Below are positions 12,206 through 47,239 of a DNA stretch of 64,000 nt, in pieces. Numbering within the stretch: position 1 is the first letter of the stretch; each line of letters starts with the position of its first letter. Source of the DNA: Planctomycetota bacterium (GTDB lineage: Bacteria > Planctomycetota > UBA1135 > GCA-002686595). The stretch spans positions 4,920 to 68,919 of the forward strand of contig JAPKBO010000001.1 in NCBI GenBank assembly GCA_028823395.1, written 5' to 3'. The notes beneath the pieces were generated by a model. The model was not told where the DNA came from. It was given only the letters and a program-made list of their open reading frames with translations, and did not search any database. The translations under genes and the position numbers were made by a program.

Positions 12206-12726
12206 GGTCGGTCTGGGGTAGAAGACGTAGCGGATTGGTCCTCCTCACCCGGAGCCATCTCCTGGGGCGGGGGGAATGAACGGGCTCGGATGAAGCGCCG
12301 GCGCAGTCGCTCTCCAAAGGGTACTTCACGTAGCAACAGGGTGGTGAACTTGCGCGCGCGTTGCACTCCGGCGGCCTCCCAGGAGACGTTCACGTCCACA
12401 GCGAACTCGTCCGGGTCGTCGGGGTTGACCCGCGCCAGGGCCGAGTAGATCACGCCGGTGGCGCCGGGCACGGGGCGATCGACGATCACACGCGGGTCCC
12501 CCACGCTGCCGTCTTCCTCTAAAGGAAAGAGTGACTCCTCTAGGTCTGCCACCACCGCCTCGATGGCCGTGGCCGCAGCCGTGCGCAAGGCAGCGGTACG
12601 GGTCAGGGCGGCGCCAAAGGTGAACAGGCCCAGGAGCGAGGTCATGGCCATGACCAGCAATCCCATCGCGAGGACGACCTCCAGGATGGTGAAGCCCGCC
12701 TGCGTCCGGGTGCGTGAAGGGCTCAT
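12202..12726 (-). CDS. minor pseudopilin, GspI-like (prepilin-type N-terminal methylation domain)
   Basis: Class III signal RTQAG|FTILEVVLAMGLLVMAM with Glu at +5. ATGA overlap with the upstream gene. Confidence 0.75.
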   Translation of the reverse strand: MSPSRTRTQAGFTILEVVLAMGLLVMAMTSLLGLFTFGAALTRTAALRTAAATAIEAVVADLEESLFPLEEDGSVGDPRVIVDRPVPGATGVIYSALARVNPDDPDEFAVDVNVSWEAAGVQRARKFTTLLLREVPFGERLRRRFIRARSFPPPQEMAPGEEDQSATSSTPDRP

Positions 12727-13937
12727 CGGCCACTCCCTAGCCGGGTCGAGGACGCAGGACGCCCCAGGTTCCAGTCGTCACTGTGCATAGCCACGGGCAC
12801 CTCAACGACGACGGTCTCACCGAAGTGTACGCGTGCGCCAATATCGTGGGGCATCGCGGCGGATCCACGGGCGGCACGTTTCACACTCACGCGGTCGCCG
12901 CGCAAGCCCTGTACCTCCATCCACTCCCCGTCGATGAGAATGTGGCGTCCTTTCCGATAGGGCAGGGCGGAACCGTCGCTCACCTCGAATGAGGCCGTTT
13001 GTTTCTCTAGGGGTTCGAGGAGGGTCGGACGCCTCCGAAGATCCGCAGGGCGCTCGAACTCAAGCTCCACGCGCACTCGGCGCGGAAGCAGGGGGCTGCC
13101 CGACACCGCCGGCATCCCCGCGCCGGGCTTGTTCCAGGGGTGCGCCTGCCAGTCCGGACAGAGGGGATCGTCGCTGGATCGTCCCCAGGCATCCCAGGAA
13201 GCGCTGGCGTGTTCCAACCCGGCGCCCAGTTCCCACCCATCCCAAATAATGCTCGTTTGTGTGGCGAACTGCAGGCCCAACCAAAGCAGCCCTCCGGACA
13301 CTTCCTCCAGCCCCCCCGCCTTGGGACGGCCCGAGGAGGAGAAGAAGTCGGACCTAAAGAAGGTGCCGACAGAGCCCGGGGCCAAAAGGGCCTCGCCACG
13401 CATGAGTAGACCCTGCCCACGGGAAAGGGCATCGGTCCCCACGGGCACCACGGCCCAGGCCACCTCCATGAGCCCACTCTGTATGGCCGGCGTGGGACGC
13501 TGGTCCTCGGGAATGAGAGTCTCTACATCGACGCCTAAACTCGCGGCTTGAGCCACCAGCGCCGGGTCCACACCACGCGCCGACAAACGAACGACGTCCG
13601 CCATGGATACCGATCGCACAAGGCGCAAACGCGGCCAGACGCGGTCCACGCGCCCGTCCTGGTCCACATCGAAATTGACCCAATCCACGAGGAAGTCCCC
13701 TTGGGATCCACTGTGTAGAGAACGCAGATCTTCAGCGATGAGCTCCGCAGTCGCAGCCCCGCGCTCAACGATGAGACGTTGATCCTCACCCCGGGTCCAC
13801 ATGTCCAAGGTCGTGTCGAGCAGACGGAACAGAGCCACCATCAAGATCGCGGCCAGACCAGCCGCCACCATCAGCTCCACCATCGTGAAGCCTCGACGTG
13901 CGATGGAACTCTTCGGATTCAGCCGGGTGCCTCTCAT
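12723..13937 (-). CDS. minor pseudopilin, GspJ-like, with a C-terminal repeat module shared with the giant pseudopilin
   Basis: ARRG|FTMVELMVAAGLAAILMVALF with Glu at +5. Start trimmed to MRGTRL (13937), which gives an ATGA overlap with the giant gene's stop. Module ILIDGEWMEVQGLRGDRVSVKRAARGSAAMPHDIGARV lies at 12828-12947. Confidence 0.7.
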   Translation of the reverse strand: MRGTRLNPKSSIARRGFTMVELMVAAGLAAILMVALFRLLDTTLDMWTRGEDQRLIVERGAATAELIAEDLRSLHSGSQGDFLVDWVNFDVDQDGRVDRVWPRLRLVRSVSMADVVRLSARGVDPALVAQAASLGVDVETLIPEDQRPTPAIQSGLMEVAWAVVPVGTDALSRGQGLLMRGEALLAPGSVGTFFRSDFFSSSGRPKAGGLEEVSGGLLWLGLQFATQTSIIWDGWELGAGLEHASASWDAWGRSSDDPLCPDWQAHPWNKPGAGMPAVSGSPLLPRRVRVELEFERPADLRRRPTLLEPLEKQTASFEVSDGSALPYRKGRHILIDGEWMEVQGLRGDRVSVKRAARGSAAMPHDIGARVHFGETVVVEVPVAMHSDDWNLGRPASSTRLGSGR

Positions 13938-16900
13938 TGATCCACACTCCTCAGCACCTGACCCGGTGCCTGATAGCCCACACCCAGACGCTTCAGACGC
14001 GGCGTCTCTTTCCAACCGTGTGAGAGCCCGGCCGTGGGGTCGAAAGCACCCGGGTCGTAGCGCACGAAAACGCGCCAGTCGATGCGCTGGGATTGCACGC
14101 CCACCGGCAGGGCCGCGTCACCGTCTCGCCCCTGGAACAGAAGCTGCAAGCCGCTCTCCTCTTCGGGGTCCGCGTCCCAGGGAACGGATGGGTCCGTGCG
14201 TTGCAAGACACCGATGTGGCACTGGCCATGGGTGGCCGGCTCAGAATCCCAGAAGGATTCCGACCACCAAGCGCCGGGCTGCTCCAACTCAAAACCGAAG
14301 TACGACATTTCGGGAGCGTCGGCCTGCTCAGCCCAACGATCCCAGTAGCGGAACGGGAACTGGATCACGGTGGAGCGCAATGCGTGGGCGCTCGGCACGG
14401 TGCCGTAGCGACCCCTAAACAGGCCCGCCCCGCCACCGTCATCGCTACTCGATCTAGAGTCAGGATCATCGGCGTCGTAGCCGGAGCGCGGCATCTCCAG
14501 CGAACCCCGGCGCTGCCGTGTGAAGTGGATCAACTCGTCACCGATCAGGACCGTACCGGAGGTGCCGAAACCGGTGGCGCTCTCAATGGGCAAGGTGGAG
14601 TCGGAGGGGCCGATCCCTCCCGTCAGCGAACTCACAGCCCAACCTTCCATCAAAGTCACCAATTCGGTCGGTTGATGGGGCTGGGGATCTGTACCCAAGA
14701 GGCCGCGACCATCGGGGGCGACGACAATGTCGCCGGTTTCCACGTCGCGCTCGGTGTAAGCCAGGATCTCGTTGCCGATCCGCAAGAGCCCCCCATCGCT
14801 GTCCAATGCTCCGAGCACCCCCTGCGCGCCACCCCAGCGGCCGCCAGGAATCACGAACCCCGTCGGGGCCACCCGCATCGTCCCACTGCTCTCATCCATG
14901 GCCTCGGCCAGGATCATCTGCGCGCCCGCACTGTGCATGGCGGGGCTAGTGCCAGGCAAGCCCATCAGGAATTGCTGGGAGCCAAATGCCACCTCGTCCA
15001 CAACGGCCGAGGGCACTTCGCCTCCTTGGGCATCAAAAGTTGAGCCCACGCTGACCGACGAAACGATACGCGGCCTCTCTCCAGAAGGGAACTTACTGAT
15101 ACGTGGCAGGAGGCGGGAGTCCGTTGTCGTCGTGCCAAGCGTGACCATGGCAACCGACTCCGGGCAAGGCTTGTCGAAAGCCACATAGATGTGCTGCACG
15201 TTGATCTCCGAGTGATTGGCCTCGAAGCTCTCCGGGGAACTGGGGAGGGCCACCTGGTCTCCGCCCGGATCGAAGTCCCAACCGTAGCCGGTGTACTCGG
15301 CCGCAGGAAGGTGAGCACGCTCAACGACCATGGGCCATCCCAGGTGGTCCGGATTGGCGCCCGATACAAAGACTGCATCACCCGCACCGGGGCGCCCTCC
15401 ATCAACGCCCCTATCAAACAAGTGGAAGACCGGCAGAACCTGAGTTCCGGCGGGATGGTCATGTGTGTGGGTTCCCAAAACACCGCGGAATTGGAAGACC
15501 GAGGAGACCGCTCGGGATAGATAGAACTCATCCAGCTCGGGTTCTCCACGCAGGGGATCCCAGTCCGACCCTACGGACGGAACCGGGCCTGAAGAAACCA
15601 CCGGAGGACCTGTAGCAGGTGCGTAAGTGCCGCCGCCACCGCCACCGCCGCCACCACCACCGCCGCCGCCCGGTCCACCACCGCCATTGCCATCAACGGT
15701 GCCACGCAAGTCGTTCATGACTCCGCCGGAGGTCAGGGTGACGTAGACGGCAAGCAGGGCCTGGTTGCGGTCGCGCACGAGCTGGCCCTGGGCCGTGGCC
15801 AAGGTGTCGTAGCGCACCCACTCGGTGAACTCCGCTGCGTCCGGCCGCGTGAGTTGGACGAACTCCGAGTTGTCGAGGGCGGGCAGATACGTGAGGTCAT
15901 CGGCACCTGGACAGGGAAGGGAAATAGGTACGCAATAGCAGCCCATGTCCAGCATGCCCTGCACCAGGTCACCCTCTGCGTTGGTGGTGCCCTCCCAGTC
16001 CACGACGTACACGCGTACGCCACCGGCAAACCCGGTGGGGTCCTGGTTCCCATAGTTGGGCAGTTCATTGGCCACGACATCCCCCCGGGCCGTGACATCG
16101 AGGACCGTCCCGGTATAGCCCGAGTAGCGGATGATCTCCAACCCGCCCAAGGGCGCGTTGGGAGGGATGCCCGAGGTACCCGTCTCGTCAAAGGCCCAGC
16201 CTTGCTGAACGAGGGCGGCATAGCCCCCGGTGGGATTGAAGGCTGTCATCACATCGGACTCCCCTGGATCTCCGGTGGGGTCGTCCGCCAGAGCCAGTAT
16301 CAGGCCACTCATGTTGGTGGCCTCGTACCCGTCGCCAAAGTCGAAGAAGCCGCCCAGGATGGGATCGGGCCCCGTCCCCGTGGAAGCATCCACGCCGATA
16401 ACACGCGCCACCCTGAACGGGCCGATGGCCTCAGGTAGTTGCGCGTTGCCTGCGGGCAGATTGGAGGCCAGGGGCGCAGAGTAGCCGTAGAGGGACACGC
16501 TCGCGCCGAGCGGGTGATCGGTGGTGATGGCTCCCAAATTGGCGGGCAGGCCTTCCACGCTCCAGCGCGTACGGGCCAGGCGTCCACCGTGCCCCGCGTT
16601 GGGGCCCACTTCTACGTGGGTGGCTTCAAGCCCTCCGGAGGAGAGCACGTACTCCACCAGCTCGTTCCCTACTCGCACCACCCCCTGGGTGGGGAATCCT
16701 TCGGTGTCATCCAGAGCAAGGAACCCCATACCTTGGCCGGCCCCACCGCTCAGCTTCGACATTCCCGGGCGTCGAACGCCCGACGCTGAGCCATTGACCA
16801 TCAGGCCCAGTTGATCCGGGCGTGTACCAAGCACCTCCAAGGAGACGTGGCTCCAGGTGTCCACCGGGAAGCCCGGACCATCTCCTTCCGCTAGCGCAAA

Positions 16901-19066
16901 ACGGGCCTCGGCCGCCTCCCGAAAACCGGGCGTGTCCACGTGATCCCCAAAACCATCGAGCACGCGCAACACCAGATCCTCGCCCTCCATTAGGAGGCTG
17001 ACCCGGTCTGACTCGCGGCTGGTCATGCCTACGTCCAAGAGGTATCCCTCCCCCAGCATGGCAGGCTTGACCCACAGCTCGAAGAGGACCGGATTCATCA
17101 AGCCACCCGAGCGCGCGTCCGCCCAAGCCACGCGCTTGTCGTCGATGGCGAAACCCAGAGTCTCGTCCGGCAGATAGCGACCCTCCAAGTCGCGAGTCTC
17201 GCGGTCAAAGTGCAGGGTACGGCCACGGTAGCGCCCCCCCTCTTCGAGGCGGGAGGGCCACAGCTGCGCCCAGGCTTCGTCTTCGCGCGAGGCGAACACG
17301 TGCTCGCCGGGTCCCGGATCCCCACTGTCAGAGTCGTCCGGAGTGAGGCCAGGCAGGTACACGCGTCCATCGCGTGTACCCATGTGCGGCCAGACCCGCG
17401 AGGGTGGCACCGTGCCGCCGTCCCACTGGGACGTCGCTTCGGGGCCCGTGGCCCACCAGGTGGCGCGCCGGGTCAGGCGCATGGATTCATCGAAGGCCTC
17501 CTGGGTGCCCCACAGAGTGAAGAGGTCGCGCTGGGGCACGACCCACTCGACGCGCTCACGGAGAGCATGGGTGCGTTCCAATCCACTCGGCGCATTGACC
17601 GAAGCGCGCAGTTGCATCGAGTACACGTCCCGCGACGTGAAGCACAAGGGCATGGTGGAGAATGCCAGCGACCCGTCGTTGGCGTTCAAACTATTCACGT
17701 AGAGCGCCAGCGCATCGACCGAAGAGATGGCGGCGCCAGAAGTGCCGGCGAATCGATCGGGAGACACGGGCGAACCCGAGGGCAACTCTTCAATTCCCGC
17801 CGCAGGCAAAACGATGCGCCGCATCCAGTCCTCGAGCCCCTCGAAGGGCCGACTCTCAACCGTCAACTCCGCAAGGAGCTTGGCCTCACTCGTGGTGATG
17901 CGCGAGTTCTGCCCGCGCAGCTGTAGGTTTTCAAACAGCGCGCGCAACACGAGCCCAGGTGCCGTGTTGACGTTCACCGGCCGGCGAGCCAGCACGCGCA
18001 CCTCCGTCTCCCAAGCCAGATAGTCCCGATCCAACACCTCATTGCAGAGGATGCGTCCGTTGGTGCTGCGCGACTGCACGTAGCGCAACTCGCCCCCCTC
18101 CTTGTCACCAATCCAAATCGTCGCGCCCTCGTTGAGATAGCGTGCATCATCCACGCCAATAGAGAGGGTCAATCCACCCTCTATGGGAGTGATCAGGCGT
18201 ACGGACCTTTGCCAGGCACTACCCGCGCAGACTCCAGCATGCACGCTGCCCACCTCCCCCAGAGCGTTATAGGCGCCATCCCCGACGCCCCCCACTATGG
18301 CGAAGGCGTCAGCCTCCCGTAGTTGCTCGATGGTGTCGAATTCGCGCAGGCGACCACCAGGACCCGAGATGCGCCAGATCACGGGGGCGAACGAACGCTG
18401 ATCCATGACGTGCGCCCCCACCGGGTGGTCGGAGGGCGGACGTGGGCCGTCGGTCACCCAGTCGCCGTCATCATTCTTGTGCGTATTCACACCCCGAACT
18501 TGAACCTGCATCTCGCCCTCTTCATCGAGAACGTAGTGAACGATCTCACCCTGGATAACGAGGAAACCCTCGCGCTCCCCGAAAGTATCGGCGTCATTGA
18601 GGGCCAGTGAGTTTGCGTCTCCCGCAACCACATCCGACGTGCGGGTGATCAGGCCCATGGCGCTGGCCAGCAGCTGGGGCGGCGCGCTGTTCAGATCGAT
18701 CAATCCCGCTACGTCGCGCACGTCCAGATCCCACATCGCTCCCGTCGCGTCGTTGGCCTTCAGGAAACCTTCGGCAAAAACATTGTCCACGCTCAACTCC
18801 TCCAGGGAGTCGGCGTACGGCGAAAGGTCGGGCAGCCCCGCATGGGAGGCCCCCAACTGACCGCGAGCGTGGCGGGCAGCGGAGTCCAGCAACAGGCGCG
18901 CCTCGGCACGGTCCGCCAGGTGCGCGCTGGCCCTATCCGCGTTGCGGGCGGCCAAGAGGAACGGAGCGCACAACACGAGCAGCGATAGGACGACCAGCAG
19001 CACCGCCATCAAGGCGAAGCCTTCGCGCCCGCGCGCAGCCAAAGGGATGGACTTATGGGCTCTCAT
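13934..19066 (-). CDS. giant (1710 aa) GspK-like minor pseudopilin with LamG-like and multiple repeat modules
   Basis: Leader ARGREG|FALMAVLLVVLSLLVL has no Glu at +5, as in GspK. Two GspK-type helix-hairpin-helix motifs (GLIDLNSAPPQLLASAMGL; PVNVNTAPGLVLRALFENL). ATGA overlaps at both ends (19063-19066 and 13934-13937). The tracked ORF start at 19429 is rejected as an extension running into the upstream gene. Confidence 0.7.
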   Translation of the reverse strand: MRAHKSIPLAARGREGFALMAVLLVVLSLLVLCAPFLLAARNADRASAHLADRAEARLLLDSAARHARGQLGASHAGLPDLSPYADSLEELSVDNVFAEGFLKANDATGAMWDLDVRDVAGLIDLNSAPPQLLASAMGLITRTSDVVAGDANSLALNDADTFGEREGFLVIQGEIVHYVLDEEGEMQVQVRGVNTHKNDDGDWVTDGPRPPSDHPVGAHVMDQRSFAPVIWRISGPGGRLREFDTIEQLREADAFAIVGGVGDGAYNALGEVGSVHAGVCAGSAWQRSVRLITPIEGGLTLSIGVDDARYLNEGATIWIGDKEGGELRYVQSRSTNGRILCNEVLDRDYLAWETEVRVLARRPVNVNTAPGLVLRALFENLQLRGQNSRITTSEAKLLAELTVESRPFEGLEDWMRRIVLPAAGIEELPSGSPVSPDRFAGTSGAAISSVDALALYVNSLNANDGSLAFSTMPLCFTSRDVYSMQLRASVNAPSGLERTHALRERVEWVVPQRDLFTLWGTQEAFDESMRLTRRATWWATGPEATSQWDGGTVPPSRVWPHMGTRDGRVYLPGLTPDDSDSGDPGPGEHVFASREDEAWAQLWPSRLEEGGRYRGRTLHFDRETRDLEGRYLPDETLGFAIDDKRVAWADARSGGLMNPVLFELWVKPAMLGEGYLLDVGMTSRESDRVSLLMEGEDLVLRVLDGFGDHVDTPGFREAAEARFALAEGDGPGFPVDTWSHVSLEVLGTRPDQLGLMVNGSASGVRRPGMSKLSGGAGQGMGFLALDDTEGFPTQGVVRVGNELVEYVLSSGGLEATHVEVGPNAGHGGRLARTRWSVEGLPANLGAITTDHPLGASVSLYGYSAPLASNLPAGNAQLPEAIGPFRVARVIGVDASTGTGPDPILGGFFDFGDGYEATNMSGLILALADDPTGDPGESDVMTAFNPTGGYAALVQQGWAFDETGTSGIPPNAPLGGLEIIRYSGYTGTVLDVTARGDVVANELPNYGNQDPTGFAGGVRVYVVDWEGTTNAEGDLVQGMLDMGCYCVPISLPCPGADDLTYLPALDNSEFVQLTRPDAAEFTEWVRYDTLATAQGQLVRDRNQALLAVYVTLTSGGVMNDLRGTVDGNGGGGPGGGGGGGGGGGGGGTYAPATGPPVVSSGPVPSVGSDWDPLRGEPELDEFYLSRAVSSVFQFRGVLGTHTHDHPAGTQVLPVFHLFDRGVDGGRPGAGDAVFVSGANPDHLGWPMVVERAHLPAAEYTGYGWDFDPGGDQVALPSSPESFEANHSEINVQHIYVAFDKPCPESVAMVTLGTTTTDSRLLPRISKFPSGERPRIVSSVSVGSTFDAQGGEVPSAVVDEVAFGSQQFLMGLPGTSPAMHSAGAQMILAEAMDESSGTMRVAPTGFVIPGGRWGGAQGVLGALDSDGGLLRIGNEILAYTERDVETGDIVVAPDGRGLLGTDPQPHQPTELVTLMEGWAVSSLTGGIGPSDSTLPIESATGFGTSGTVLIGDELIHFTRQRRGSLEMPRSGYDADDPDSRSSSDDGGGAGLFRGRYGTVPSAHALRSTVIQFPFRYWDRWAEQADAPEMSYFGFELEQPGAWWSESFWDSEPATHGQCHIGVLQRTDPSVPWDADPEEESGLQLLFQGRDGDAALPVGVQSQRIDWRVFVRYDPGAFDPTAGLSHGWKETPRLKRLGVGYQAPGQVLRSVDQ
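15629..15685 (-). repeat. imperfect (GCC/ACC)n trinucleotide tract encoding GGGGPG14 inside the giant pseudopilin
   Basis: Codon-by-codon reading: 14 consecutive Gly codons, then Pro, then 4 more Gly (protein ...DGNGGGGPGGGGGGGGGGGGGGTYAP...). Confidence 0.95.
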
Positions 19067-20112
19067 TCGACCGTCCCGTACACGTTGACTCGAATGGTCT
19101 CCACACCGCCCTCGCCAAAGTCGAGGCCCAGCTCTACCGGCCGCAGATGAACCGTTGGATCCAATCCACCTCCGGCCATGAACTCCACGGAGGCGGGAGT
19201 TTGGGGAGTAAAATCCACCCCCAGGGGCAAAACGCCTCGCTCGCTGCCCACCACGACCGCCAGGATCAGCCTGTCGAGAACTCCCGAGGGAAGGGTGGTT
19301 CCACCGCCCACGATCAAGGGCGCCTCCACGTCCCAGACCGGCACGTCGGAGGCCGTTGAGGCCAGCGGAACCCCATTGACCAGAAGTCGCAGAGTGCGTT
19401 TGTCGTAGACGCATCGCACATGATTCCATTGGTCCGGCCGTAGAGCCGTGGCACTTGTCTGAACACCGACCCTTGCGCCACGCCGAGGCTGGCCCAGTGC
19501 GTCCACCTCACGCCGGTACAGGGTGGCCGAGAGGCCTCCACCGGAAGTGGTCTGCAACAGGAAGGAGTCGCCGATTTCGATCAGCTTGGCCCCCACCATG
19601 CGCTCGGGCTTGTAGCTGATCTCCAGACTGAACCCCTCGGTCAAGTCGAATGCGGGGTCGTGTTGCACGGGGAACTCGGCCCGCGCGCCGGCGGGCGCAC
19701 CATCGAATGAGAGTCCACGCCCCATGAACCCGTCGTCGTCCAACAGTGAGCCACTCCCCAAGAATACACCGTCGATTCCATCCGAACCGCTAAGGGTCTC
19801 GTCCTCGAAATGCCAAGTACCCACGACACGCATGCCCACGGTCAGGATTTCGCCTGTCTCGTGATTGAGGATCACGCGAGAAGGAGCCCCCAGAGCCACG
19901 GCTGTGTTGTGCGCGGTACGCAACAGGCTCGTGACCTGACCCAGAGCGGCGCGCCGACCGGGATCCAGGGTCGCGAAAGCCCCCAATCCCATGCCCATCA
20001 TCACAGCGATCAGCCCCATCACAAGCATCAGCTCGATCAGGGTCATGCCCGCGTTGAAGCGGACCGGACGCGTGGGGTTAGTCCCGCTCAATCTCAAAGT
20101 TGGCGATGTCAT
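19063..20112 (-). CDS. modular pseudopilin (GspH position) carrying a LamG/concanavalin-A-like domain
   Basis: VRFNAG|MTLIELMLVMGLIAVMM with Glu at +5. C-terminal WNHVRCVYDKRTLRLLVNGVPLAS is typical of Laminin_G_3-type jelly rolls. ATG at 20112 overlaps gspG by 35 nt (in-frame TTG alternatives exist). ATGA overlap with the giant gene. Confidence 0.7.
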   Translation of the reverse strand: MTSPTLRLSGTNPTRPVRFNAGMTLIELMLVMGLIAVMMGMGLGAFATLDPGRRAALGQVTSLLRTAHNTAVALGAPSRVILNHETGEILTVGMRVVGTWHFEDETLSGSDGIDGVFLGSGSLLDDDGFMGRGLSFDGAPAGARAEFPVQHDPAFDLTEGFSLEISYKPERMVGAKLIEIGDSFLLQTTSGGGLSATLYRREVDALGQPRRGARVGVQTSATALRPDQWNHVRCVYDKRTLRLLVNGVPLASTASDVPVWDVEAPLIVGGGTTLPSGVLDRLILAVVVGSERGVLPLGVDFTPQTPASVEFMAGGGLDPTVHLRPVELGLDFGEGGVETIRVNVYGTVE

Positions 20113-20779
20113 CTGCAGTACCGAAAAATCCGTCGGGTCCGGCGGAGATGATCTGGAAGCTGGATTTGCGATGAGGGTCTCCCGTCTTGCGGGAGACGCC
20201 TCCCTTGACCGGGCCCTCAATATCCAGACCCACTTCGTCATAGGTGAGGTAGTGAATCTCCTTCTCGTAGTCCCGGCGGTGGATGTACGCGAGGGGATTT
20301 CCCCAAACGTCGATCAACTCGAAGGCATCGGGGCTACTGAAGCGCGTCAGGCTGGTCTTCGTGCTATCTCCATCGGTGTTGCCGAGAGCATCCTCACCTA
20401 TCTCCGCGGCCTGCCAAGGACGGCCCTGGCGCCACAGGCTGATGACGAGCATTTCCACACCCATGTTGATGCGGTTGGGCTTGGGGTCGAGGCTGGCCGG
20501 GAAGGTCGAGGGCGGGTAGCGCTGGAACTCGTTGTTGTACTCCTCCACCAGCCCACCGATGGTCTGAATCAGGGCCTTGGTATTGCCCACCTCCACGCTG
20601 ATCTGGGCAGCGCGCACGGAGCGCACCAGGAAGGTCACCAGGATGGACAGAATCATGAGCACCGCCAGGAGCTCAATCAGGGTGAAGCCACCTTGGGTTC
20701 CGTCCCGCTCAGGAGCGGTCGTGGAAGACGCCCGAGAGGTCCGGAGGAGTAGCGGGCGAAGGGAGTTGGAGATTCGCAT
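20078..20779 (-). CDS. gspG: type II secretion major pseudopilin GspG-like, with an internal insertion
   Basis: TQGG|FTLIELLAVLMILSILVTFLVRSV...KALIQTIGGLVEEYNNEFQRYPPS and C-terminal FQIISAGPDGFFGTADDIANF match the GspG pattern. Confidence 0.8.
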   Translation of the reverse strand: MRISNSLRPLLLRTSRASSTTAPERDGTQGGFTLIELLAVLMILSILVTFLVRSVRAAQISVEVGNTKALIQTIGGLVEEYNNEFQRYPPSTFPASLDPKPNRINMGVEMLVISLWRQGRPWQAAEIGEDALGNTDGDSTKTSLTRFSSPDAFELIDVWGNPLAYIHRRDYEKEIHYLTYDEVGLDIEGPVKGGVSRKTGDPHRKSSFQIISAGPDGFFGTADDIANFEIERD

Positions 20780-20794
20780 GGTCGAGTTTAAATC

Positions 20795-23488
20795 CTAAAG
20801 CCGTCGCCGGATGACCCCTACGTAGTTCACCGAAACCGAGGCACGCCTGCCGGCGCGGCCCTCTACGAAGATTCCGAAGCGCAATGGCTGACTTGAACGG
20901 CCCAGAGTCGGCAGTGCCAAGTTCTCGATCACGGGAACGTCATCGACCCACAGGGTAACCGTGGTATCCGAGGAGGTCTCTCCGCGCTTCTCGATCCCCA
21001 CGCGCATGGGCTCCCCCACGTTCCATTGGGCGGTATACAGATCTTGCGCCGCCGCATCCAGCTCACCCTTCTTGGTCAGCGTCGCGCGCACGGCACCGTC
21101 CCAGTGACGCACCAATTCCACAGCGGCATGGGTTCGGATGTCCCCGGTGCGACCTTCAGTTTCGCGTGCGATAAAGATGCCCACGGTCACGTCCCGCGAA
21201 TCGGGGTGAACGGTGAGCTCGGCCTCGAGTGAAAGCAGGCGGTCTGCGGGAAGCTCGCGGTAGAGGCGGGTCCGACTCTCCTTGCTGAGCTGCCCCTCGA
21301 TCCACACGGCTCCGTCGCGCAGGCGCACCTCCGCGCCGTAGCCTTGGTCGTAGGTCCAGCCGTTGCCCACACGTCCCACGCGGTCGAAACGGTCGCGCCA
21401 GAACTCCTTGCTCTCGTGGTCGCGGATGCGAGCGCTCTGGGACTCGGCGTATTGACTGGCCGCATCGCCCTCGAGCTCGTTACGGCGGATGTCCACCAGT
21501 TCGGCAAAGCTAGCCTGGGCCTGCCCCGAGTCGCCGCTGAGGTACTGCCACCAGGCCATCCCGTTCCGGGCCGAGGCCAGGTCGGGATCGAGGCCCAGTG
21601 CTACGCCGAAAGAGGTCTCGGCCTTGCTCAACTCACCCAGCACCAGGAAGTTCAATCCACGCCGGGCATGCACGGCCGGGCGTGCGGTATCGATACTCAG
21701 GGCCCGCTCGAAGTAGCGCTCGGCCGAATCCGGATCCCCCCCCTCGCTGGCCAGGGCGCCCATAGCGATCAGCGCGTCGGGGAAATCCAATTCCTGATCG
21801 AGGGCAGCGCGGAAGCTCGCCATGGCTTCGTCCTCTTCATCGCGCTGCGTCTGCAGACGCCCGCGCTGATAGAGAGTCCAGGCGTCTTCGGGGTTCGACG
21901 CGTAGGCCATCTCGATGTAGGTCCAGGCTTCCTCCGGATGGCCCGTAATCTCGGCCACCCAACTCAAGCTTCGCCAGCACAGCCAAGCACGGAAGGGATC
22001 AACCGCTGCGGCCTGGCGTAGGGAGCTCACGGCGCCCCCATCATCCTCGGCCTGCAAGGCGGCCAACCCACGGGCGAAGAGCAGATCGAAGCTGGCATCC
22101 GGCCCGTCGCTGACATTCTCCTCCAGCACATCACCCTCACCCAAGAGGACCGACGCGGCCAAGACTCCCGCAGGGCCAAGGTCCGCTTCGGGGTCCGCAC
22201 TGGCGCCGCGCTCGAACGCATCTCTCGCCGCCCGTACCTCACCGCGAGCCATCAGCACACGACCAAAATCCGTGCGGATACCCACCCGTTCGGCGCGCAG
22301 GTCGTTGCCCGTGGGCTCCCGCTTCTGGGCCTCGTTCAGGTGCTCAAAGGCTTGATCGTATTGACCGGCATCCAGGAGAAACCGTCCGTACAGCCAACGC
22401 ACAAGCCAGTCCGTTCGCGAACGGCGCAGGCCCTCGTCAAAGGCCTGCTGGGCCGGGCCGCGCATGCGGAAGCGGGCGTACAGGTCTCCTAGTCGAGCCC
22501 ACGGCTCGGGCTCCGTATGCAAATTGCCTTCGGTCAGGCTCGCGTAGACGTCCAAGGCAGCCTGGAAATCAAAACCCAGCTCATGACACCGGGCCAAACC
22601 CAGGTGCGGGCGCACGTCGGTGGGCTGTAACCCGACGCACAGGCGGTACAGGTCCTCGGCCACTTCCAGGGCACGCGACGTCTCGTTACGCAGCCCGAGG
22701 CACTCCCCTGCAAAACGCATGGCCCCGTCAAAGTCGCCCGGGCGCAAGTCAGAACCGAAGGCGGCACGGCCCAGCTCGACTCTGTTCGCCGATGTATCAG
22801 CAAACCCTAAATCTTGAACGCGCTCGGCCTCGTAGGCCACAGCTTGCTGGCCGGGGAAGCGCTCCTTGCCAGTGCTGGGATCAATCTCGAGAAACAAAAC
22901 GGCCTCGCCACTTCCCTTCAGCCCAAAGCGGTCGCGATTCGCGATGTGGCCGAACTTCAGGTTGGCTACCACGATCCAATCGTAGAGTTTCTTGCGCGCT
23001 TCAATGCGTGCTAGGCGTTCGTCGACAGTGAGGTCCGCGTCCGACGCACCACTCACCGTTATGATGTCCTGCGAGTCTCCACTTCCGATCGATGCGGGCT
23101 CCATTGACGAGACATCAAACAGGCCTGGCGCCGATCTGGCAGAAAGCGGCGTGCGCAGATGCTCGCCCATGTGCTTGGCGGCAGGGCCGTAAGCGCTTGG
23201 AGGGGCGAGGGCAGGCAGGGGCTCGATGGGTGGTGAAATTAACTCCAGGAGCGGCAGGGGGGTGGTGTCCCGAGGTGGCGAGAAGAGGTCACGCTGAAGG
23301 GTCCCCTGACGACTCTCAGCCGGTAAGGCCAAATCGCTATCGGGGACGGCGGCCCGCGAGTAGCTCTTGGCCGTTCCAGCGCTCCCTCCTCGAAGGCCCA
23401 CAGTCCCATCAGACATCAAACCGTAAGCGCTCCAGGCGAGGAGCCCCGCTACGGCCAGGAAGACACCGGTCTCTTTTTTCATTTCCAT
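20795..23488 (-). CDS. membrane-anchored TPR-repeat protein with C-terminal beta-jelly-roll (DUF1080/LamG-like) domain
   Basis: Start trimmed to MEMKKETGVFLAVAGLLAWSAYGLM (TM), 16 nt after the upstream stop. Multiple TPR-like helices. The last about 190 aa (20798-21367) read GNGWTYDQGYGAEVRLRDGAVWIEG...LWVDDVPV... Confidence 0.7.
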   Translation of the reverse strand: MEMKKETGVFLAVAGLLAWSAYGLMSDGTVGLRGGSAGTAKSYSRAAVPDSDLALPAESRQGTLQRDLFSPPRDTTPLPLLELISPPIEPLPALAPPSAYGPAAKHMGEHLRTPLSARSAPGLFDVSSMEPASIGSGDSQDIITVSGASDADLTVDERLARIEARKKLYDWIVVANLKFGHIANRDRFGLKGSGEAVLFLEIDPSTGKERFPGQQAVAYEAERVQDLGFADTSANRVELGRAAFGSDLRPGDFDGAMRFAGECLGLRNETSRALEVAEDLYRLCVGLQPTDVRPHLGLARCHELGFDFQAALDVYASLTEGNLHTEPEPWARLGDLYARFRMRGPAQQAFDEGLRRSRTDWLVRWLYGRFLLDAGQYDQAFEHLNEAQKREPTGNDLRAERVGIRTDFGRVLMARGEVRAARDAFERGASADPEADLGPAGVLAASVLLGEGDVLEENVSDGPDASFDLLFARGLAALQAEDDGGAVSSLRQAAAVDPFRAWLCWRSLSWVAEITGHPEEAWTYIEMAYASNPEDAWTLYQRGRLQTQRDEEDEAMASFRAALDQELDFPDALIAMGALASEGGDPDSAERYFERALSIDTARPAVHARRGLNFLVLGELSKAETSFGVALGLDPDLASARNGMAWWQYLSGDSGQAQASFAELVDIRRNELEGDAASQYAESQSARIRDHESKEFWRDRFDRVGRVGNGWTYDQGYGAEVRLRDGAVWIEGQLSKESRTRLYRELPADRLLSLEAELTVHPDSRDVTVGIFIARETEGRTGDIRTHAAVELVRHWDGAVRATLTKKGELDAAAQDLYTAQWNVGEPMRVGIEKRGETSSDTTVTLWVDDVPVIENLALPTLGRSSQPLRFGIFVEGRAGRRASVSVNYVGVIRRRL

Positions 23489-23504
23489 GATGATGGTCCC
23501 GAGG

Positions 23505-24299
23505 CTACTGCCCGGCCTCCTCGCCACCCAGGTTGTCCTTGATGCGCACGACCTGATACTCGATATCCGCTTTGACGGATCCGATCTTGTTGCGCTCGTT
23601 CTTGACGTTGAACTGACCGATGGCCAACGGACCACCGCTCCCATCTTCCGCCGCAGGCTCTTGGCTGGCCACGATCAAGTTGGTGACCGACTCGGCGCTG
23701 GACAAAAGAGTAAAGGTGACGCTCGTACGCTCCACGGCGCCCAATCCACTGCGGGATCCAAAGCCCGGATCGAGCTTCACAGCAATACGACTGATGCGAT
23801 CGACGCCAGCATCGGCGGCGAGTCGAGCCACGCGCTCTAAGAGGTCTAAGGCCTCAAGGCGACGCTCGATCTCCGGCAGACTGTTGGTCTCCAACATTTC
23901 AATACCCCATCCGTCCGGGTAGTTCATACGTCGACGGCTGGCCAGAAGGTTCAGGTCCTCTCGCACTTCCTCCACGCGAGTGAAGTAGATCCCGCTCGCT
24001 GAACCGGTACCCGCCTCCACGACAAAGCCGGGGCGCGGCCGAAATGCGGTGGCTCCGGTCATGACGCTGATCGCCTCGCGCAGAGCGTCGTTCTCTTCGG
24101 CCGCAGCATCACGATGGGTGGTGGAGTAACGCTCGGCCTTGAGGTCTCCACGGTTCTTGTTGCGCAGACGCTTGGCCGTCCCCAAGTCCTCACCGTAGAG
24201 ACTCTGCACGACGAAGAGTCCGATCACAAAGACGAGGAAGCCGCCGCCAAGAGTGACAAGGAAACGTTTGTTCTCTTGCCAGTAGTCATTCATGTCCAT
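23505..24299 (-). CDS. PilO/GspM-like bitopic assembly protein
   Basis: Short cytoplasmic N-terminus, one TM (FLVTLGGGFLVFVIGLFVV), a coiled region and an about 150-aa periplasmic domain. Sits 2 nt downstream of the PilM-PilN fusion gene. Call is by position and topology. Confidence 0.5.
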   Translation of the reverse strand: MDMNDYWQENKRFLVTLGGGFLVFVIGLFVVQSLYGEDLGTAKRLRNKNRGDLKAERYSTTHRDAAAEENDALREAISVMTGATAFRPRPGFVVEAGTGSASGIYFTRVEEVREDLNLLASRRRMNYPDGWGIEMLETNSLPEIERRLEALDLLERVARLAADAGVDRISRIAVKLDPGFGSRSGLGAVERTSVTFTLLSSAESVTNLIVASQEPAAEDGSGGPLAIGQFNVKNERNKIGSVKADIEYQVVRIKDNLGGEEAGQ

Positions 24300-24301
24300 G
24301 G

Positions 24302-25999
24302 CTAGTATTCCCCCCCTTCATCATCACCCGCGCCGTCATCCGCGTCGGGCGGCGGCGCACCGAACAGGCAAAGGTCCAATGAAAACTGGTCCCGATCGAT
24401 GGACTCCTTCATGCGCCCCCCACTCGATCCGTCCCCCACCAGGGCTTCGCGCAGGGTGCGCGTCATCTCCTGGAACTGGCGACTGGGAGAGTCGGTACCG
24501 GGCCGTATCATCCCGCGCACCATGAGCATCGGGCGCTCGGCGTTGCGCTCGACTCCCAGTTCGGGGTCGAAGGTCCACTCGCTGCTCAGCTCGGAGACCC
24601 AGAAATCGCCGGGAAGGGATTTGTCGAGCTTGCTCATCGCACGCGCGCCCTGCTCGCCCAAACCCGCCACCCACTGGAGCTCCGAGGCGAGCACACGCAG
24701 GGATCCATTTTCCTCGATCAGCTGCTCGGCCTCGCGATGGATTCGGGTGTCCCTAGAGAGGCGGGACTGTAGCCCTGCGTTCTCGCTATTGACCTTGTCG
24801 AGTTCATCGGCGAGGTGCACCGTCTTGAAGCCCAGGTAGCACACAGCCAGGAGGGCGGCGGCAATAAGCCAGACCGTCTCTCCCCAAAAAGCTCGCTTCT
24901 TGGCGAGGCTCGCCGGCAAGACCTCCAGACTGTAAGCCTCGGAGTCGGAGCCCATGGTGGCCAAGCCAAGCGCCACCACCGCCTGCAACTTGAACTCTTC
25001 AAGCAGATCCGCACTGGCTGCGTCCAGCTTCTCAGTCTCCACCATGCGGAAAGCATCGAAGAGTTCCACCGTCACACCCATACCGCCCGAGATGTACTGG
25101 GGCAAGCCGTCAAGAGCTGCGCCGCCACCGCAGAGCATCACGCGATCCACTTTCAGGCCGCTGATCTTGACCTGACTTTTGCAGAACAGGATGGCCGACT
25201 GAAGGAGAGAGAGAATCTGGCCCGCGGCGCCCATGATGCTGCGGCTGGCCTTCTCGTGGTTGGGAGTCGGGTGCGAGGCACCGGGACGCAAGCTGGCATA
25301 TTTCCGCTTGAGCATCTCAGCCTGCGCCGGGCCCACGTTGAAGCGCTGCGCCAGGGCCTGGTCGAAAAGTCGACTGCCCCCGGAGAGATTGCGCGCAAAC
25401 AGAAGATCCGGTCCCCGGGCAATAACCACGTCGATGTTGTCGTGCCCGATGTTGGCCAGGAGAACGGTCTCGTCTTCCACCACGCCGTAGTGCGTCCAGG
25501 CGTTGTGCAACGCGATCGCGCTGGGGCTGAAGCTATCCAGGTTCCCGCCCGTCAGCTCTAAGCCCTCGAGGTGGTCGTCCAAGAGGCCTTCACGTGCCAT
25601 GGCCAGCAGGACCACGTCCTCCCCCTCGACCTCCGGGAGTTCGGGCAAGAGGTTGAAGTCACTCGCCACATCGGTACCGGATTGATCGCCAATCTCGGAC
25701 ACCTCGAACCGCATCAGGTTGCGCAGCTGCCAGTCGGGCACCCGCGGCACGCGGGTATAGCGCACGTTGACATCGCGGCCCGTCAGGCCCACTCGCGCCG
25801 CCACGGGCTTAAAGCCCTGGGCCAGTTCCTCCCACCCGCTCAGCAGCCAGCCGGTGTCCGCTTCACTCGCGCTTGAGCCAAGGGAAGGGTTGGCACGAGC
25901 ATGGAAGTTCGTGACGTGAAAGGTATTTCCCTTGTACTGTCCGCACAGTGCAATGGCCGAACCAGCACCGACGTCAATGCCTGTTGAGGTGCGCGCCAT
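24302..25999 (-). CDS. PilM-PilN fusion (GspL-like): actin-like ATPase-fold domain, TM, and periplasmic coiled coil
   Basis: N-terminus TGIDVGAGSAIAL...LLANIGHDNIDVVIA...VMLCGGGAALDGL is PilM-type actin fold. This is followed by TM VWLIAAALLAVCYLGF, a coiled coil (LDKVNSENAGLQSRLSRD) and a PilN-like tail. Confidence 0.8.
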   Translation of the reverse strand: MARTSTGIDVGAGSAIALCGQYKGNTFHVTNFHARANPSLGSSASEADTGWLLSGWEELAQGFKPVAARVGLTGRDVNVRYTRVPRVPDWQLRNLMRFEVSEIGDQSGTDVASDFNLLPELPEVEGEDVVLLAMAREGLLDDHLEGLELTGGNLDSFSPSAIALHNAWTHYGVVEDETVLLANIGHDNIDVVIARGPDLLFARNLSGGSRLFDQALAQRFNVGPAQAEMLKRKYASLRPGASHPTPNHEKASRSIMGAAGQILSLLQSAILFCKSQVKISGLKVDRVMLCGGGAALDGLPQYISGGMGVTVELFDAFRMVETEKLDAASADLLEEFKLQAVVALGLATMGSDSEAYSLEVLPASLAKKRAFWGETVWLIAAALLAVCYLGFKTVHLADELDKVNSENAGLQSRLSRDTRIHREAEQLIEENGSLRVLASELQWVAGLGEQGARAMSKLDKSLPGDFWVSELSSEWTFDPELGVERNAERPMLMVRGMIRPGTDSPSRQFQEMTRTLREALVGDGSSGGRMKESIDRDQFSLDLCLFGAPPPDADDGAGDDEGGEY

Positions 26000-28116: not shown

Positions 28117-28377
28117 GGACAGCGGAGGTGGAACGGATCGACTCCCACCGCCAGGCACCCTGGGGGGGGTACTGACCGTGGAGAGCTGGGGAGATTGTGA
28201 GGCGGGATCGGGCGCGTGGCCTATCCCCACCAGAGGACCATGTAACCTCCCCGTGCGCACGGAAAGGGCAATGGGAAGACATCGGCGGGGGCGCGAGGGT
28301 AGCGCAGAGACATGGCGCCGCAAAGGGACCTTTCATCCCTGTCATCTCTGGCTCCCTCACTCTGGCCCCTGAGCCTC

Positions 28378-32549: not shown

Positions 32550-32620
32550 GCGCAGCGGGGGTCGTCCAAGGACAGGGAAGCAAGAGTGTAGCGCTCTCCT
32601 TGCATGCTACCGTAGCCAGC

Positions 32621-46131: not shown

Positions 46132-46521
46132 GTCGTGAGGCTTTTCTCTGGTGAAATAAGGGGAGCTAACCGTGAGGGCGAGGATCATAGCAGGACACCG
46201 CTCAGGGTCCGGAACTGGAGCGGTCCACCCGATACTCCAGTCGACGCACCCGCTCCTCCCGACAGAATGCCCGGAATTGGAACCAAATCTGAGCCCGTCC
46301 CGACCCCCAGGCAGCCCCGACCACGCGGTCTGGGGCCCGGCGGCCCCCCCACTTGAACCTGCCCCTTTGGCCCAATAGGTGGTGTTTCGCCTGTGGCCAG
46401 CCATTGGGATGGGCCAAGGGGGTGCCGAGAGGAGCCATATAGGGCTACACCTCCCCCCGGTCCCAATCCGATAACATCCCCTGTCCCCTACCCCGTCGAC
46501 CCGTCTTTGCCCGATTCGCCC

Positions 46522-47070: not shown

Positions 47071-47239
47071 CCCTAGAGCCCCTCAGGGGGGAGGAAGCCC
47101 CCTCAAGCGCCCTCAGGGCGTTTCTCAAACACATTCTCCTAACACAAGGAAGAGCGAGCCCGAAGGCTCGTCGTAATCCAGCGAGAGCACCGCCCAGTAG
47201 CCTTGCCTCGTGCCCCTCACCCGCCACCCACCAGCCATC

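Follow-up and report, generated by a model that had tools for sequence, protein, structure and literature searches.

We found that a gene in the window, the 64,000-nucleotide stretch of a Planctomycetota contig analysed here, encodes a 1710-residue protein that is probably an enlarged (about five-fold) cap subunit of the GspK/PilK class, with a very large binding head, from a type IV filament, either pilus or pseudopilus, in uncultured Planctomycetota. Profile comparison shows homology between its first ~520 residues and GspK over the full GspK length, and the ~1190 residues beyond this module are predicted to form a LamG jelly-roll, several beta-barrel modules and a terminal beta-sandwich (Table 1).

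Table 1. Features of the giant gene and its neighbours, in window coordinates.
Feature	Position	Strand	Evidence
Giant GspK-class minor pilin gene, 1710 aa + stop	13934..19066	-	ORF, ATGA overlaps, 204 homologues, dN/dS 0.07
Leader peptide (aa 1-16) with Gly(-1) as its last residue; putative cleavage by prepilin peptidase at G16|F17	19019..19066	-	Sequence, family conservation
GspK-homologous module, aa 1-522	17501..19066	-	hhalign; Pfam T2SSK in members
Pilin alpha1 helix, aa 17-72	18851..19018	-	AF2 helix 15-72; aligns with GspK residues 3-66
First HhH motif IDLNSAPPQLLASAM, aa 123-137	18656..18700	-	Aligns with GspK 'FNLNAL' motif; AF2
Beta-barrel module R1, aa 159-225, inserted in alpha-domain	18392..18592	-	AF2 strands 166-222
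Second beta-rich insert R2, aa 289-360, in alpha-domain	17987..18202	-	AF2 strands 289-359
Second HhH motif VNVNTAPGLVLRALF, aa 364-378	17933..17977	-	Pfam T2SSK and NCBIfam GspK matches fall here; aligns with GspK 'iNvNt'
Conserved connector, aa 511-600	17267..17536	-	Invariant residues; pLDDT 44-71 in both split models
LamG/concanavalin-A-like jelly-roll, aa ~629-785	16712..17182	-	Foldseek; Pfam in homologues
Beta-barrel module R3, aa 788-866	16469..16705	-	hhalign vs R7, probability 96-97%
Beta-rich middle region, aa 887-1057	15896..16408	-	AF2 pLDDT mostly 73-97, short dip near aa 961-970
Split beta-barrel module, aa 1058-1214	15425..15895	-	hhalign with R7: 73 columns, probability 62%, E 7e-5
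Disordered Gly/Pro-rich loop within split module, aa 1116-1164	15575..15721	-	pLDDT ~30
Beta-barrel module R6, aa 1418-1478	14633..14815	-	hhalign vs R7, probability 85-90%
Beta-barrel module R7, aa 1497-1575	14342..14578	-	Profile-profile comparison
C-terminal beta-sandwich, aa ~1588-1699	13970..14305	-	AF2 strands, pLDDT 86-91
Conserved C-terminal end APxxVLRSV(E/D)R-COOH (aa 1700-1710), a candidate docking strand	13937..13969	-	Family conservation
GspI-like minor pilin, 174 aa	12202..12726	-	NCBIfam XpsI E 4.7e-9 over aa 9-130
GspJ-like minor pilin, 404 aa	12723..13937	-	N_methyl E 1.9e-5; profile vs K-12 GspJ, probability 89.7%
GspH-like minor pilin with Laminin_G_3 domain, 392 aa by longest ORF	19063..20241	-	Laminin_G_3 E 6e-8; NCBIfam GspH E 7.6e-5
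GspG-like major (pseudo)pilin, 233 aa	20078..20779	-	NCBIfam GspG E 6e-8
Upstream operon genes	20795..28323	-	Profile matches
949-aa TPR protein gene	20795..23644	-	
264-aa protein gene of upstream operon	23505..24299	-	
PilM-like gene, Amuc_1101 family, 565 aa	24302..25999	-	
FHA/YscD-like gene	25999..28323	-	

A single gene with a GspK-homologous module

The open reading frame and its translation define a single gene. Its frame is uninterrupted upstream to 19429, and the residue numbers of the first-pass annotation referred to the resulting 1831-aa frame; numbering here follows the 1710-aa gene, whose start at 19066 agrees with the N-termini of homologues. This ATG shares an ATGA with the stop codon of the gene upstream, and a second ATGA joins the gene's own stop codon (13934-13936) to the start codon of the gene downstream (13937). 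We detected 204 homologues of ~1700 aa each, and relatives were present in 214 stretches of species-representative genomes. The family comprised 414 clusters at 50% identity, its named members all being derived from Planctomycetota MAGs and lacking annotation. Apparently complete members were ~1540-2040 aa long, even at 27% identity, and shorter entries were apparent fragments. Comparison with a 92%-identical relative (L001) gave a dN/dS of 0.072 for the gene and 0.057-0.104 in each of six blocks along it; the frame is therefore not a chance ORF, and the gene is under strong purifying selection over its full length. The earlier suggestion of one real gene, coupled by ATGA on both sides, was thus borne out by the frame, the overlaps, the homologues and dN/dS.

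The putative cleavage site lies within REGFALMAVLLVV (aa 14-26). Among 158 non-redundant family members, position -1 was Gly in 147 of 148 ungapped rows, and the commonest residues at +5 were T, A, V, I and S, Glu not being among them, which agrees with the lack of Glu+5 first noticed in the window protein. Pfam N_methyl had no match in the giant protein. Against a profile of 78 GspK sequences, hhalign aligned aa 12-522 with GspK residues 3-323/327 (probability 88.8%), and removal of two inserts gave a probability of 97.2% (E 3e-11). Pfam T2SSK matched 15 of 28 family members (best E 1.8e-5); the window protein itself fell below the cutoffs of T2SSK (E 0.0035, 18.1 bits; cutoff 24.2) and NCBIfam GspK (E 6.7e-4, 19.3 bits; threshold 130), and T2SSK_1st was not detected in it. 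The AF2 N-terminal model (pLDDT 83.9, pTM 0.82) shows a pilin helix and sheet with an expanded alpha-domain. In the module, alpha1 and beta1 (110-118) precede an alpha-domain of two HhH/SAM-like units, which is followed by a hairpin (481-508). When the entire N-terminal model was searched with Foldseek, GspK was not among the 50 best PDB matches, and a sequence search with the family HMM gave no relative in the PDB. The GspK-like N-terminus proposed in the first-pass annotation held, with ~520 residues aligning to the full GspK length, and fold prediction agreed in giving a pilin-like N-domain and an expanded alpha-domain.

The motifs IDLNSAPPQLL (aa 123-133; 244-254 in the 1831-aa numbering) and VNVNTAPGLVL (aa 364-374; 485-495) are indeed separated by inserted sequence, modelled as two beta-barrels plus helices. 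R1 is homologous to R3 and R7 (hhalign, probability 73-95%) and resembles phage tailspike N-domains by Foldseek; for R2, profile-profile comparison detected no sequence similarity to the other modules.

The beta-rich C-terminal region

The connector behind the GspK-homologous module contains the invariant residues P511, Q512, L515, Q522, R530, P542 and G563. The C-terminal AF2 model had pLDDT 84.9 and pTM 0.82. The block previously described as LamG-like, whose quoted strings span aa 661-679 and 738-760 (nt 16787-17086), was recovered as a jelly-roll: Foldseek matched it to laminin LG4-5 (E 1e-4) and the agrin LG domain (1pz8, probability 1.0), and Pfam Laminin_G_3 matched 8 of 28 family members (best E 9e-6). 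Similarly, profile-profile comparison supported the repeated modules: a beta-barrel of 65-80 aa occurs at least five times. The barrel belongs to no Pfam family and resembles phage tailspike N-domains and tail proteins; R6, for example, matched PHROG 1101 'tail protein' (E 1.4e-4). A module-like stretch at aa 966-1025 of the middle region was weak (profile-profile probability 7%). A Gly run is present at aa 1128-1146, where a poly-Gly linker had been claimed; rather than linking domains, it lies in a disordered loop inside the split barrel and is missing from many relatives.

At the extreme C-terminus, P1701 was invariant and L1705 occurred in 149 of 158 family members, the motif being retained to the last residue in relatives of 27-33% identity. 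This end had pLDDT <50 in the AF2 model lacking the N-terminal module, and covariation was too weak to inform on docking of a C-terminal strand. Beta-strand addition has been reported for GspK, CpaL, PilY1 and MshQ (PMC13533445), and the extreme C-terminus of the giant protein may fold back and add a beta-strand to the pilin module or to the J-like subunit.

Neighbouring genes and alternative readings

The pilin genes are ordered G-H-K-J-I, K-J-I being the reverse of the canonical I-J-K. The two downstream pseudopilins expected earlier proved to be J-like and I-like; a J-like gene was directly downstream of the giant gene in 59 of 70 loci examined (J-like length in 54), and the J-like pilin of the window carries the repeat module at aa 322-374 (probability 95.5% against R7). 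For the H-like gene, the internal ATG at 20112 is a likelier start than that of the longest ORF. A tblastn search with K-12 GspG gave matches in 60 loci. The upstream operon genes keep their order in a 46-48%-identical relative, on a contig of 6.5 Mb. Neither the window nor the 10 kb around the gene in 80 related loci contained a homologue of GspC, D, E, F, L, M or O, a secretin, an ATPase, a platform protein or a prepilin peptidase.

These neighbours bear on the earlier proposal of a short T2SS pseudopilus, whose GspK-type homology stood; given the PilM/Amuc_1101 matches and the lack of T2SS core genes within 10 kb, neither its T2SS assignment nor the short pseudopilus was established. We regard it as rather unlikely that the giant protein caps a periplasmic T2SS pseudopilus and is not a surface adhesin, in which case its head would remain periplasmic, as a platform recognising folded substrates and pushing them through a secretin, the LamG and beta-barrel modules serving as substrate-binding sites. 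T2SS GspK is the nearest homologous family, the major subunit matches GspG best, the 565-aa PilM-like gene is in principle long enough for a GspL-like layout and is followed by a 264-aa gene of unknown family, and the very low dN/dS would suit an internal machine part. However, GspC/D/E/F/L/M homologues were not detected near the gene in any of the 81 loci, the family matches of the assembly protein are to PilM and Amuc_1101 ('pilus complex') instead of GspL, and a 1700-aa head far exceeds any known T2SS tip. Considerably less probable is a GspK-derived bitopic inner-membrane protein that has left the filament, stays anchored by its uncleaved N-terminal helix and displays a large scaffold in the periplasm or on the cell surface. 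Such a scaffold would fit the extreme size for a pilin, the lack of a prepilin peptidase gene within 10 kb and the undetected N_methyl, but Gly(-1) and a hydrophobic alpha1 segment are kept as in processed pilins, translational coupling joins the gene to four other pilin genes in conserved order, and purifying selection has preserved the pilin sheet together with the entire GspK module. Fusion of two or more genes by a frameshift or mis-join, suggested by nothing except the unusual length, is refuted by hundreds of independent assemblies with collinear proteins of ~1560-2040 aa (one of them on a 6.5-Mb contig), besides the uniform selection in six blocks and confident AF2 models with high pTM across domain boundaries.

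Several observations were counted against the cap reading. A head of ~180 kDa must pass, or sit outside, the outer-membrane channel; Pfam and NCBIfam scores were below threshold, GspK was absent from the top 50 Foldseek matches, assembly genes were not nearby and the K-J-I order was reversed.

Relation to known systems and proposed role

GspK/XcpX, the minor pseudopilin at the top of the GspI-J-K tip complex in T2SS, is homologous over its entire length to the first ~520 residues of the giant protein. Both have a leader without Glu+5 (RG|VALLI in K-12 GspK) and an alpha-domain of two HhH/SAM-like units inserted after beta1, and both are encoded beside I- and J-like pilins. Complete GspKs found with E. 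coli K-12 GspK were 286-393 aa long, confirming that normal size is far below 1710 aa; the giant protein adds two beta-rich inserts and ~1190 residues, and differs further in its K-J-I gene order, the lack of T2SS core genes within 10 kb and scores below curated GspK thresholds. In the PVC superphylum, the Verru_Chthon cassette of Verrucomicrobia (proteins A-D, TIGR02596-02600) includes pilin-like proteins. The I-like and J-like proteins weakly matched its proteins B (E 1.5e-6) and C (E 0.008), and the protein D model had no match to the giant protein at E <= 0.01.

A large binding protein sits atop an I-J-K initiation complex in CpaL/TadG (Tad), PilK with PilY1/PilC (T4a) and MshP with MshQ (MSHA); CpaL joins a pilin-like N-module and a large body in one polypeptide whose extreme C-terminus returns as a beta-strand, and MshQ (~1200 aa) is encoded downstream of pilIJK homologues in the operon (PMC13533445). 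The giant protein likewise has an invariant extreme C-terminus, a candidate for such strand return. In contrast to CpaL, its N-module is a full GspK homologue and not merely pilin-like, and the protein as a whole is almost three times as large. The PilY1 beta-propeller, vWA and the MshQ family had no match in it (Pfam, NCBIfam). Modular type IV pilins such as S. sanguinis PilB (vWA) and PilC (lectin), T. thermophilus ComZ and ETEC CofB carry grafted non-pilin modules, including concanavalin-A-like lectin domains (PF13385), that are predicted to be tip-exposed; modules can insert within the pilin fold, as in ComZ and GspK, and the most extreme multi-domain pilin singled out in that survey has 860 residues with 12 repeat copies (PMC8179133). 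The giant protein shares with them a pilin module and grafted modules, including a LamG/concanavalin-A-like fold, whereas its family is about twice the size of the 860-residue case, combines insertion with C-terminal extension and uses a repeat module without a Pfam family.

We infer a tip-binding role for the giant protein, as adhesin or effector. After cleavage at the putative G16|F17, its alpha1 helix would seed the filament with the I- and J-like subunits, by analogy with the GspI-J-K and PilI-J-K initiation complexes, and the giant protein would therefore be the topmost subunit. The beta-domains may build a large, rigid head for binding a conserved ligand, for which a glycan is the most plausible candidate, with one LamG in the head and a second on the H-like subunit. 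The uniformly low dN/dS favours a conserved ligand or structural role over an arms-race adhesin. Cultured planctomycetes bear dextran-binding pili-like fibres (PMC5394234). Read as a filament cap, the giant protein extends the known modular GspK-class tip pilins to an extreme size.

Conservation of the giant gene

The giant gene lies on the minus strand in an open frame running from 19429 to 13934, and it is coupled to both of its neighbors: an ATGA overlap joins its ATG at 19066 to the TGA of the gene upstream, and a second ATGA joins its stop codon (13934–13936) to the ATG of the next gene (13937). A start at 19429 would give a longer product of 1831 aa; this frame was rejected since it overlaps the H-like gene and since homologues begin at the equivalent of 19066. 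Among 5.8 billion proteins searched, 204 relatives were found, nearly all of the best 120 being 1670–1870 aa in length. Relatives were also found in 214 stretches in a scan of species-representative genomes, and an exhaustive phmmer search with aa 1–580 against 1.84 billion cluster representatives yielded 414 clusters at E ≤ 1e-3. Complete-looking members of these clusters were ~1540–2040 aa long, even at 27% identity, and shorter ones appear to be fragments. Of the 80 related loci that were kept, nearly all came from metagenome-assembled genomes (MAGs) labelled Planctomycetota or subgroups. The MAGs of two loci with the giant gene (L025 and L075) carry the labels “Candidatus Paceibacteria” and “Glaciecola sp.”, the rest being Planctomycetota; these labels most likely reflect binning contamination rather than the true distribution.

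Compared with a 92%-identical relative, the giant gene had a dN/dS of 0.072, with values of 0.057–0.104 in each of six consecutive blocks. Such very low and uniform values argue for a conserved ligand or structural role and against an arms-race adhesin. Together with the hundreds of relatives of ~1700 aa, they bear out the proposal of the first-pass annotation that this is a single real gene rather than a chance ORF or a mis-join. All database names on family members were “hypothetical protein” or a generic label, and no description of the family was found in literature searches.

An N-terminal module related to GspK

The giant protein begins with a class III prepilin signal, MRAHKSIPLAARGREG/FALMAVLLVV..., which combines a short basic leader, Gly(-1) and a hydrophobic alpha1N. 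This Gly(-1), at a putative cleavage site predicted from the sequence, was present in 147 of 148 ungapped members. As the first-pass annotation had pointed out, the leader REG/FALMAVLLVV (aa 14–26) has no Glu at +5; the commonest residues at this position among 158 members were T, A, V, I and S, with no Glu among them, and K-12 GspK likewise has no Glu there. Pfam N_methyl was not detected in the giant protein. The two helix-hairpin-helix (HhH) motifs claimed earlier were located at aa 123–133 (IDLNSAPPQLL) and aa 364–374 (VNVNTAPGLVL).

Comparison of the family with the single K-12 GspK sequence by hhalign was weak, covering the N-terminal helix and beta1 only with a probability of 14%, so a profile of 78 GspKs of 280–400 aa, collected with E. 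coli K-12 GspK as the starting point, was needed. Against this profile, aa 12–522 aligned with GspK 3–323 of 327 (probability 88.8%, E = 2.5e-6), and with the two beta-rich inserts cut out the same comparison gave a probability of 97.2% (E = 3e-11). The alignment paired the leader and alpha1 with those of GspK, D-x-x-G-x-IDLNSA with D-x-x-x-x-FNLNAL of GspK, and PVNVNTA with iNvNt, and it included the SRPF motif and the “S-x-yF-x-l” strand. A DNA-uptake receptor with ComEA-like HhH motifs was considered and rejected, since these motifs are of the GspK type and no other part of the giant protein suggests DNA binding.

The giant protein did not pass curated models, reaching 18.1 bits against a cutoff of 24.2 for PF03934 (E = 0.0035) and 19.3 bits against 130 for the NCBIfam GspK model NF037980 (E = 6.7e-4); both sub-threshold matches fall on the second HhH motif. 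PF21687 had no match in the giant protein in the Pfam scan. Among 28 diverse relatives, 15 matched Pfam T2SSK (PF03934) at E ≤ 0.01 (best E = 1.8e-5), and two homologous proteins (P0038 and P0090) carry a precomputed PF03934 match. A whole-family HMM gave chance matches only against PDB sequences (E = 0.46). Judged by profile comparison, the giant protein is a remote GspK homologue that fails curated GspK models.

Structure was predicted in two segments, as the first-pass annotation had recommended, and both models were confident. In the AlphaFold2 (AF2) model of aa 1–580 (45 sequences; pLDDT 83.9, pTM 0.82), the N-terminal part had a pilin-like topology. The predicted module has the GspK plan with two extra domains placed inside the alpha-domain. 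When the whole 580-aa model was compared with PDB by Foldseek, matches to the small beta-barrels dominated and no GspK was among the top 50, and homology was therefore tested by profile-profile comparison instead. The topology assigned by DSSP was compatible with GspK; fold identity thus rests on sequence-profile homology and topology.

Predicted elements of the N-terminal module and genes of the pilin locus, with flanking genes in order along the minus strand
Feature	Position	Strand	Basis and remarks
alpha1 helix, 58 residues	aa 15–72		AF2
Strand	aa 110–118		AF2; followed by HhH1
Beta-barrel insert	aa 166–222		AF2; three helices next
Second beta-rich insert	aa 289–359		AF2; followed by HhH2 and helices
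Hairpin	aa 481–508		AF2
FHA/YscD-like gene, 774 aa	25999–28323	-	FHA/YscD-cytoplasmic-like domain, E 1.6e-15
PilM-like gene, 565 aa		-	Amuc_1101 family
264-aa protein
949-aa TPR protein
GspG-like pilin, 233 aa		-
GspH-like pilin, 392 aa			Laminin_G_3
Giant gene, 1710 aa	13934–19066	-	K-like
J-like pilin, 404 aa	12723–13937	-	55-sequence profile vs K-12 GspJ, probability 89.7%
I-like pilin, 174 aa		-	XpsI/GspI, E 4.7e-9
519-aa secreted protein	10646–12205	-
PpiC rotamase	9699–10688	-
ScpB

LamG domain, repeat modules and the C-terminal end

A further 1190 residues follow the GspK-like module, and a model of aa 561–1710 was similarly confident (pLDDT 84.9, pTM 0.82). The LamG-like block proposed in the first-pass annotation was found at aa 661–760, within a domain of aa ~629–785. 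Foldseek against PDB matched this region with the LG domains of laminin, agrin, neurexin and Gas6 and with lectin-like domains of clostridial toxins, and Pfam Laminin_G_3 was present in 8 of 28 relatives, which confirms the LamG call. Another gene of the window, at 32600–34585 (+), encodes a secreted-looking protein of 661 aa with a calcineurin-like metallophosphoesterase domain and Laminin_G_3 (E = 6e-24), so in this genome LamG modules are not confined to the pilin operon. Two further ORFs, at 47210–49207 (+) and 57000–58355 (+), consist of CarboxypepD_reg/prealbumin-like repeats (E = 1e-65 for the first) and are probably cell-surface or secreted repeat proteins.

The repeated modules suspected earlier were defined by profile-profile self-comparison as a 65–80-aa repeat whose motif is G-h-h-x-I-G-x-E-x-I-x-Y ... 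RG-x-x-GT ... H-x-x-G-x-x-V. Four copies, at aa 159–225, 788–866, 1418–1478 (R6) and 1497–1575 (R7), are related to one another via R7 with probabilities up to 85–97%, and a further copy is split into halves at ~1058–1100 and 1180–1214 (probability 62%). The poly-Gly segment, taken in the first-pass annotation for an inter-domain linker, must be read differently. A Gly run does exist at aa 1128–1146, but the Gly/Pro-rich stretch around it (1116–1164, pLDDT ~30) sits between the halves of the split module and is thus an intra-domain loop rather than an inter-domain tether; also, many relatives have no Gly run.

The Pfam scan of nine separate segments of the giant protein gave no family, and the repeat module has no Pfam family. 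A PHROG scan of the nine segments matched a tail protein family with R6 (phrog_1101, E = 1.4e-4) and phrog_7578 of unknown function (E = 0.0013), with no others of note. By Foldseek, the module is structurally closest to N-terminal domains from phage tailspikes (AP22 gp54, LKA1 gp49 and K64-1 S2-4), to a baseplate protein of JBD30 and to the barrel at the N-terminus of F1/V1 ATPase subunits. In BFVD, the whole C-terminal model resembled large structural proteins and adhesins of phages. Taken together, the LamG domain, a second LamG on the H-like subunit and modules like those of phage receptor-binding proteins suggest a binding role for the head of the giant protein.

Conservation extends right to the carboxyl end: the final ten residues read AP-x-x-V-L-R-S-V-(E/D)-R, a pattern that persists in relatives at 27–33% identity. 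These residues were unstructured in the model that does not contain the N-terminal module. The connector at aa 511–600 has many invariant residues and low confidence in both half-models, which suggests that it would pack against something missing from each of them. In mfDCA with 158 sequences (Meff 126), the control contacts 485–502 and 111–491 were on top, and the rest was noise-like, with no clear tail-to-sheet coupling. Chimeric profiles compared with GspK (core plus tail, core plus native 511–526, and core plus a control segment) had equal scores and did not discriminate.

The pilin locus and a probable filament cap

Within the pilin locus at 12202–20779 on the minus strand, the minor pilin genes run H-K-J-I, the reverse of I-J-K, and the I- and J-like genes are adjacent to and coupled with the giant gene. 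Each of the five pilins is 1.4 to 5 times larger than its counterpart in E. coli K-12 (G 145, H 169, I 125, J 195 and K 327 aa). The J-like pilin carries the beta-barrel module of the giant protein at its C-terminal end (aa 322–374; hhalign probability 95.5%). Synteny, including the flanking RadC and ScpB, was kept on a 6.5-Mb contig of a 46–48%-identical relative; a gene lay directly downstream of the giant gene in 59 of 70 loci examined, and in 54 it was of J-like length. In tblastn searches of the window and the 80 loci (1.67 Mb) with K-12 Gsp proteins, GspG alone matched; GspC, D, E, F, L, M and O gave no match at E ≤ 1e-3. No motor, secretin or peptidase genes were found near the locus by tblastn, and these may therefore be located elsewhere in the genome.

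Several other genes of this region were recorded. The FHA/YscD-like operon head does not belong to the standard components of T2SS or T4P, and occupies the same position in a distantly related locus (L080). The 519-aa ORF has a signal-peptide-like N-terminus, weak TPR matches and a C-terminal DnaJ-type zinc-finger pattern (CSTCGGRG ... CHACRG), and its position is kept in L080 (505 aa); its product could be a dedicated periplasmic chaperone for giant pilins. At the PpiC position, L080 has a gene of similar size (378 aa) with no Pfam family on record. A second PpiC-domain protein is encoded in the window at 34647–36119 (+), and the PpiC proteins are possible folding helpers for the pilin set. 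At 45568–46725 (-), Sod_Ni (nickel superoxide dismutase, E = 5e-27) falls in the C-terminal third (aa 235–368) of a 385-aa ORF, which has either an over-called start or an unusual N-terminal extension. tRNA and Rfam scans of the window gave no match.

In GspI-J-K and PilI-J-K complexes, the K subunit caps the filament, and it has no Glu5 because nothing sits above it. For the giant protein, homology, architecture, coupling and selection are shown, and its function is inferred from these complexes. The giant protein would cap a type IV filament, either a pseudopilus or a pilus, in the manner of GspK or PilK, while differing from these caps in its size and domain content as well as in gene order and genomic context. 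Compared with T2SS, it has no GspC/D/E/F/L/M nearby, and the order is K-J-I instead of I-J-K, which is almost invariant in T2SS and T4P (PMC13533445). It would also work like the modular pilins PilB, PilC, ComZ, CofB and CpaL. As in modular type IV pilins (PMC8179133), a pilin/GspK module is joined to a module that is not pilus-specific, here LamG, and the most extreme multi-domain example singled out in that 2021 survey has 860 residues. A tip adhesin of the PilY1/PilC class was rejected, since Pfam and NCBIfam gave no match to the PilY1 beta-propeller and Foldseek gave jelly-rolls and small barrels, with no propellers. Similarly, the giant protein had no match to models of MshQ or of Verru_Chthon protein D. 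By its homology, the giant protein is best described as an extreme form of a modular, GspK-class pilin from a solid and widespread family.

According to a 2026 study (PMC13533445), assembly is licensed by the final beta-strand in the sheet of the K subunit. GspK and the 600-aa CpaL/TadG supply this strand in cis; the C-terminus of PilY1/PilC, and probably the 1200-aa MshQ, supply it in trans. By analogy, the extreme C-terminal peptide of the giant protein may be a licensing strand of the cis type. The giant protein would then represent the cis solution at its extreme, with a K module, an adhesin-sized body and an invariant strand-like end in one chain. Dextran-binding pili-like fibres have been described in cultured planctomycetes (PMC5394234); this is context only, the giant-protein family being known here from MAGs. 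The boldest reading, which we consider rather unlikely, is that the protein is a single-chain fusion of a PilK/GspK initiator with a tip adhesin of the PilY1/MshQ class, the largest pilin known, whose invariant C-terminal strand returns across ~1180 residues, completing the pilin sheet and licensing assembly. Its enlarged H-, J- and I-like partners would join it in a lectin-bearing tip complex of ~2700 residues. Such a complex would be the long-sought end through which the glycan-binding fibres of Planctomycetota bind their ligand, and it would be partly built from a beta-barrel module shared with phage tail proteins.

In this family the modular pilin is pushed to an extreme, with a probable cap subunit of 180 kDa kept across hundreds of uncultured Planctomycetota and the whole minor-pilin set enlarged. 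It also defines an unannotated beta-barrel module of 65–80 aa common to two pilins and phage tail proteins. The giant pilin would be a natural test case for how much cargo the tip of a type IV filament can carry and still be assembled, and bears on licensing by the C-terminal strand (PMC13533445) across an excursion of 1200 residues. Planctomycetota matter for marine and freshwater carbon turnover, and proteins of the giant family are currently without any annotation; if the LamG-bearing head binds polysaccharide, it would provide a molecular handle on fibre-mediated glycan capture.
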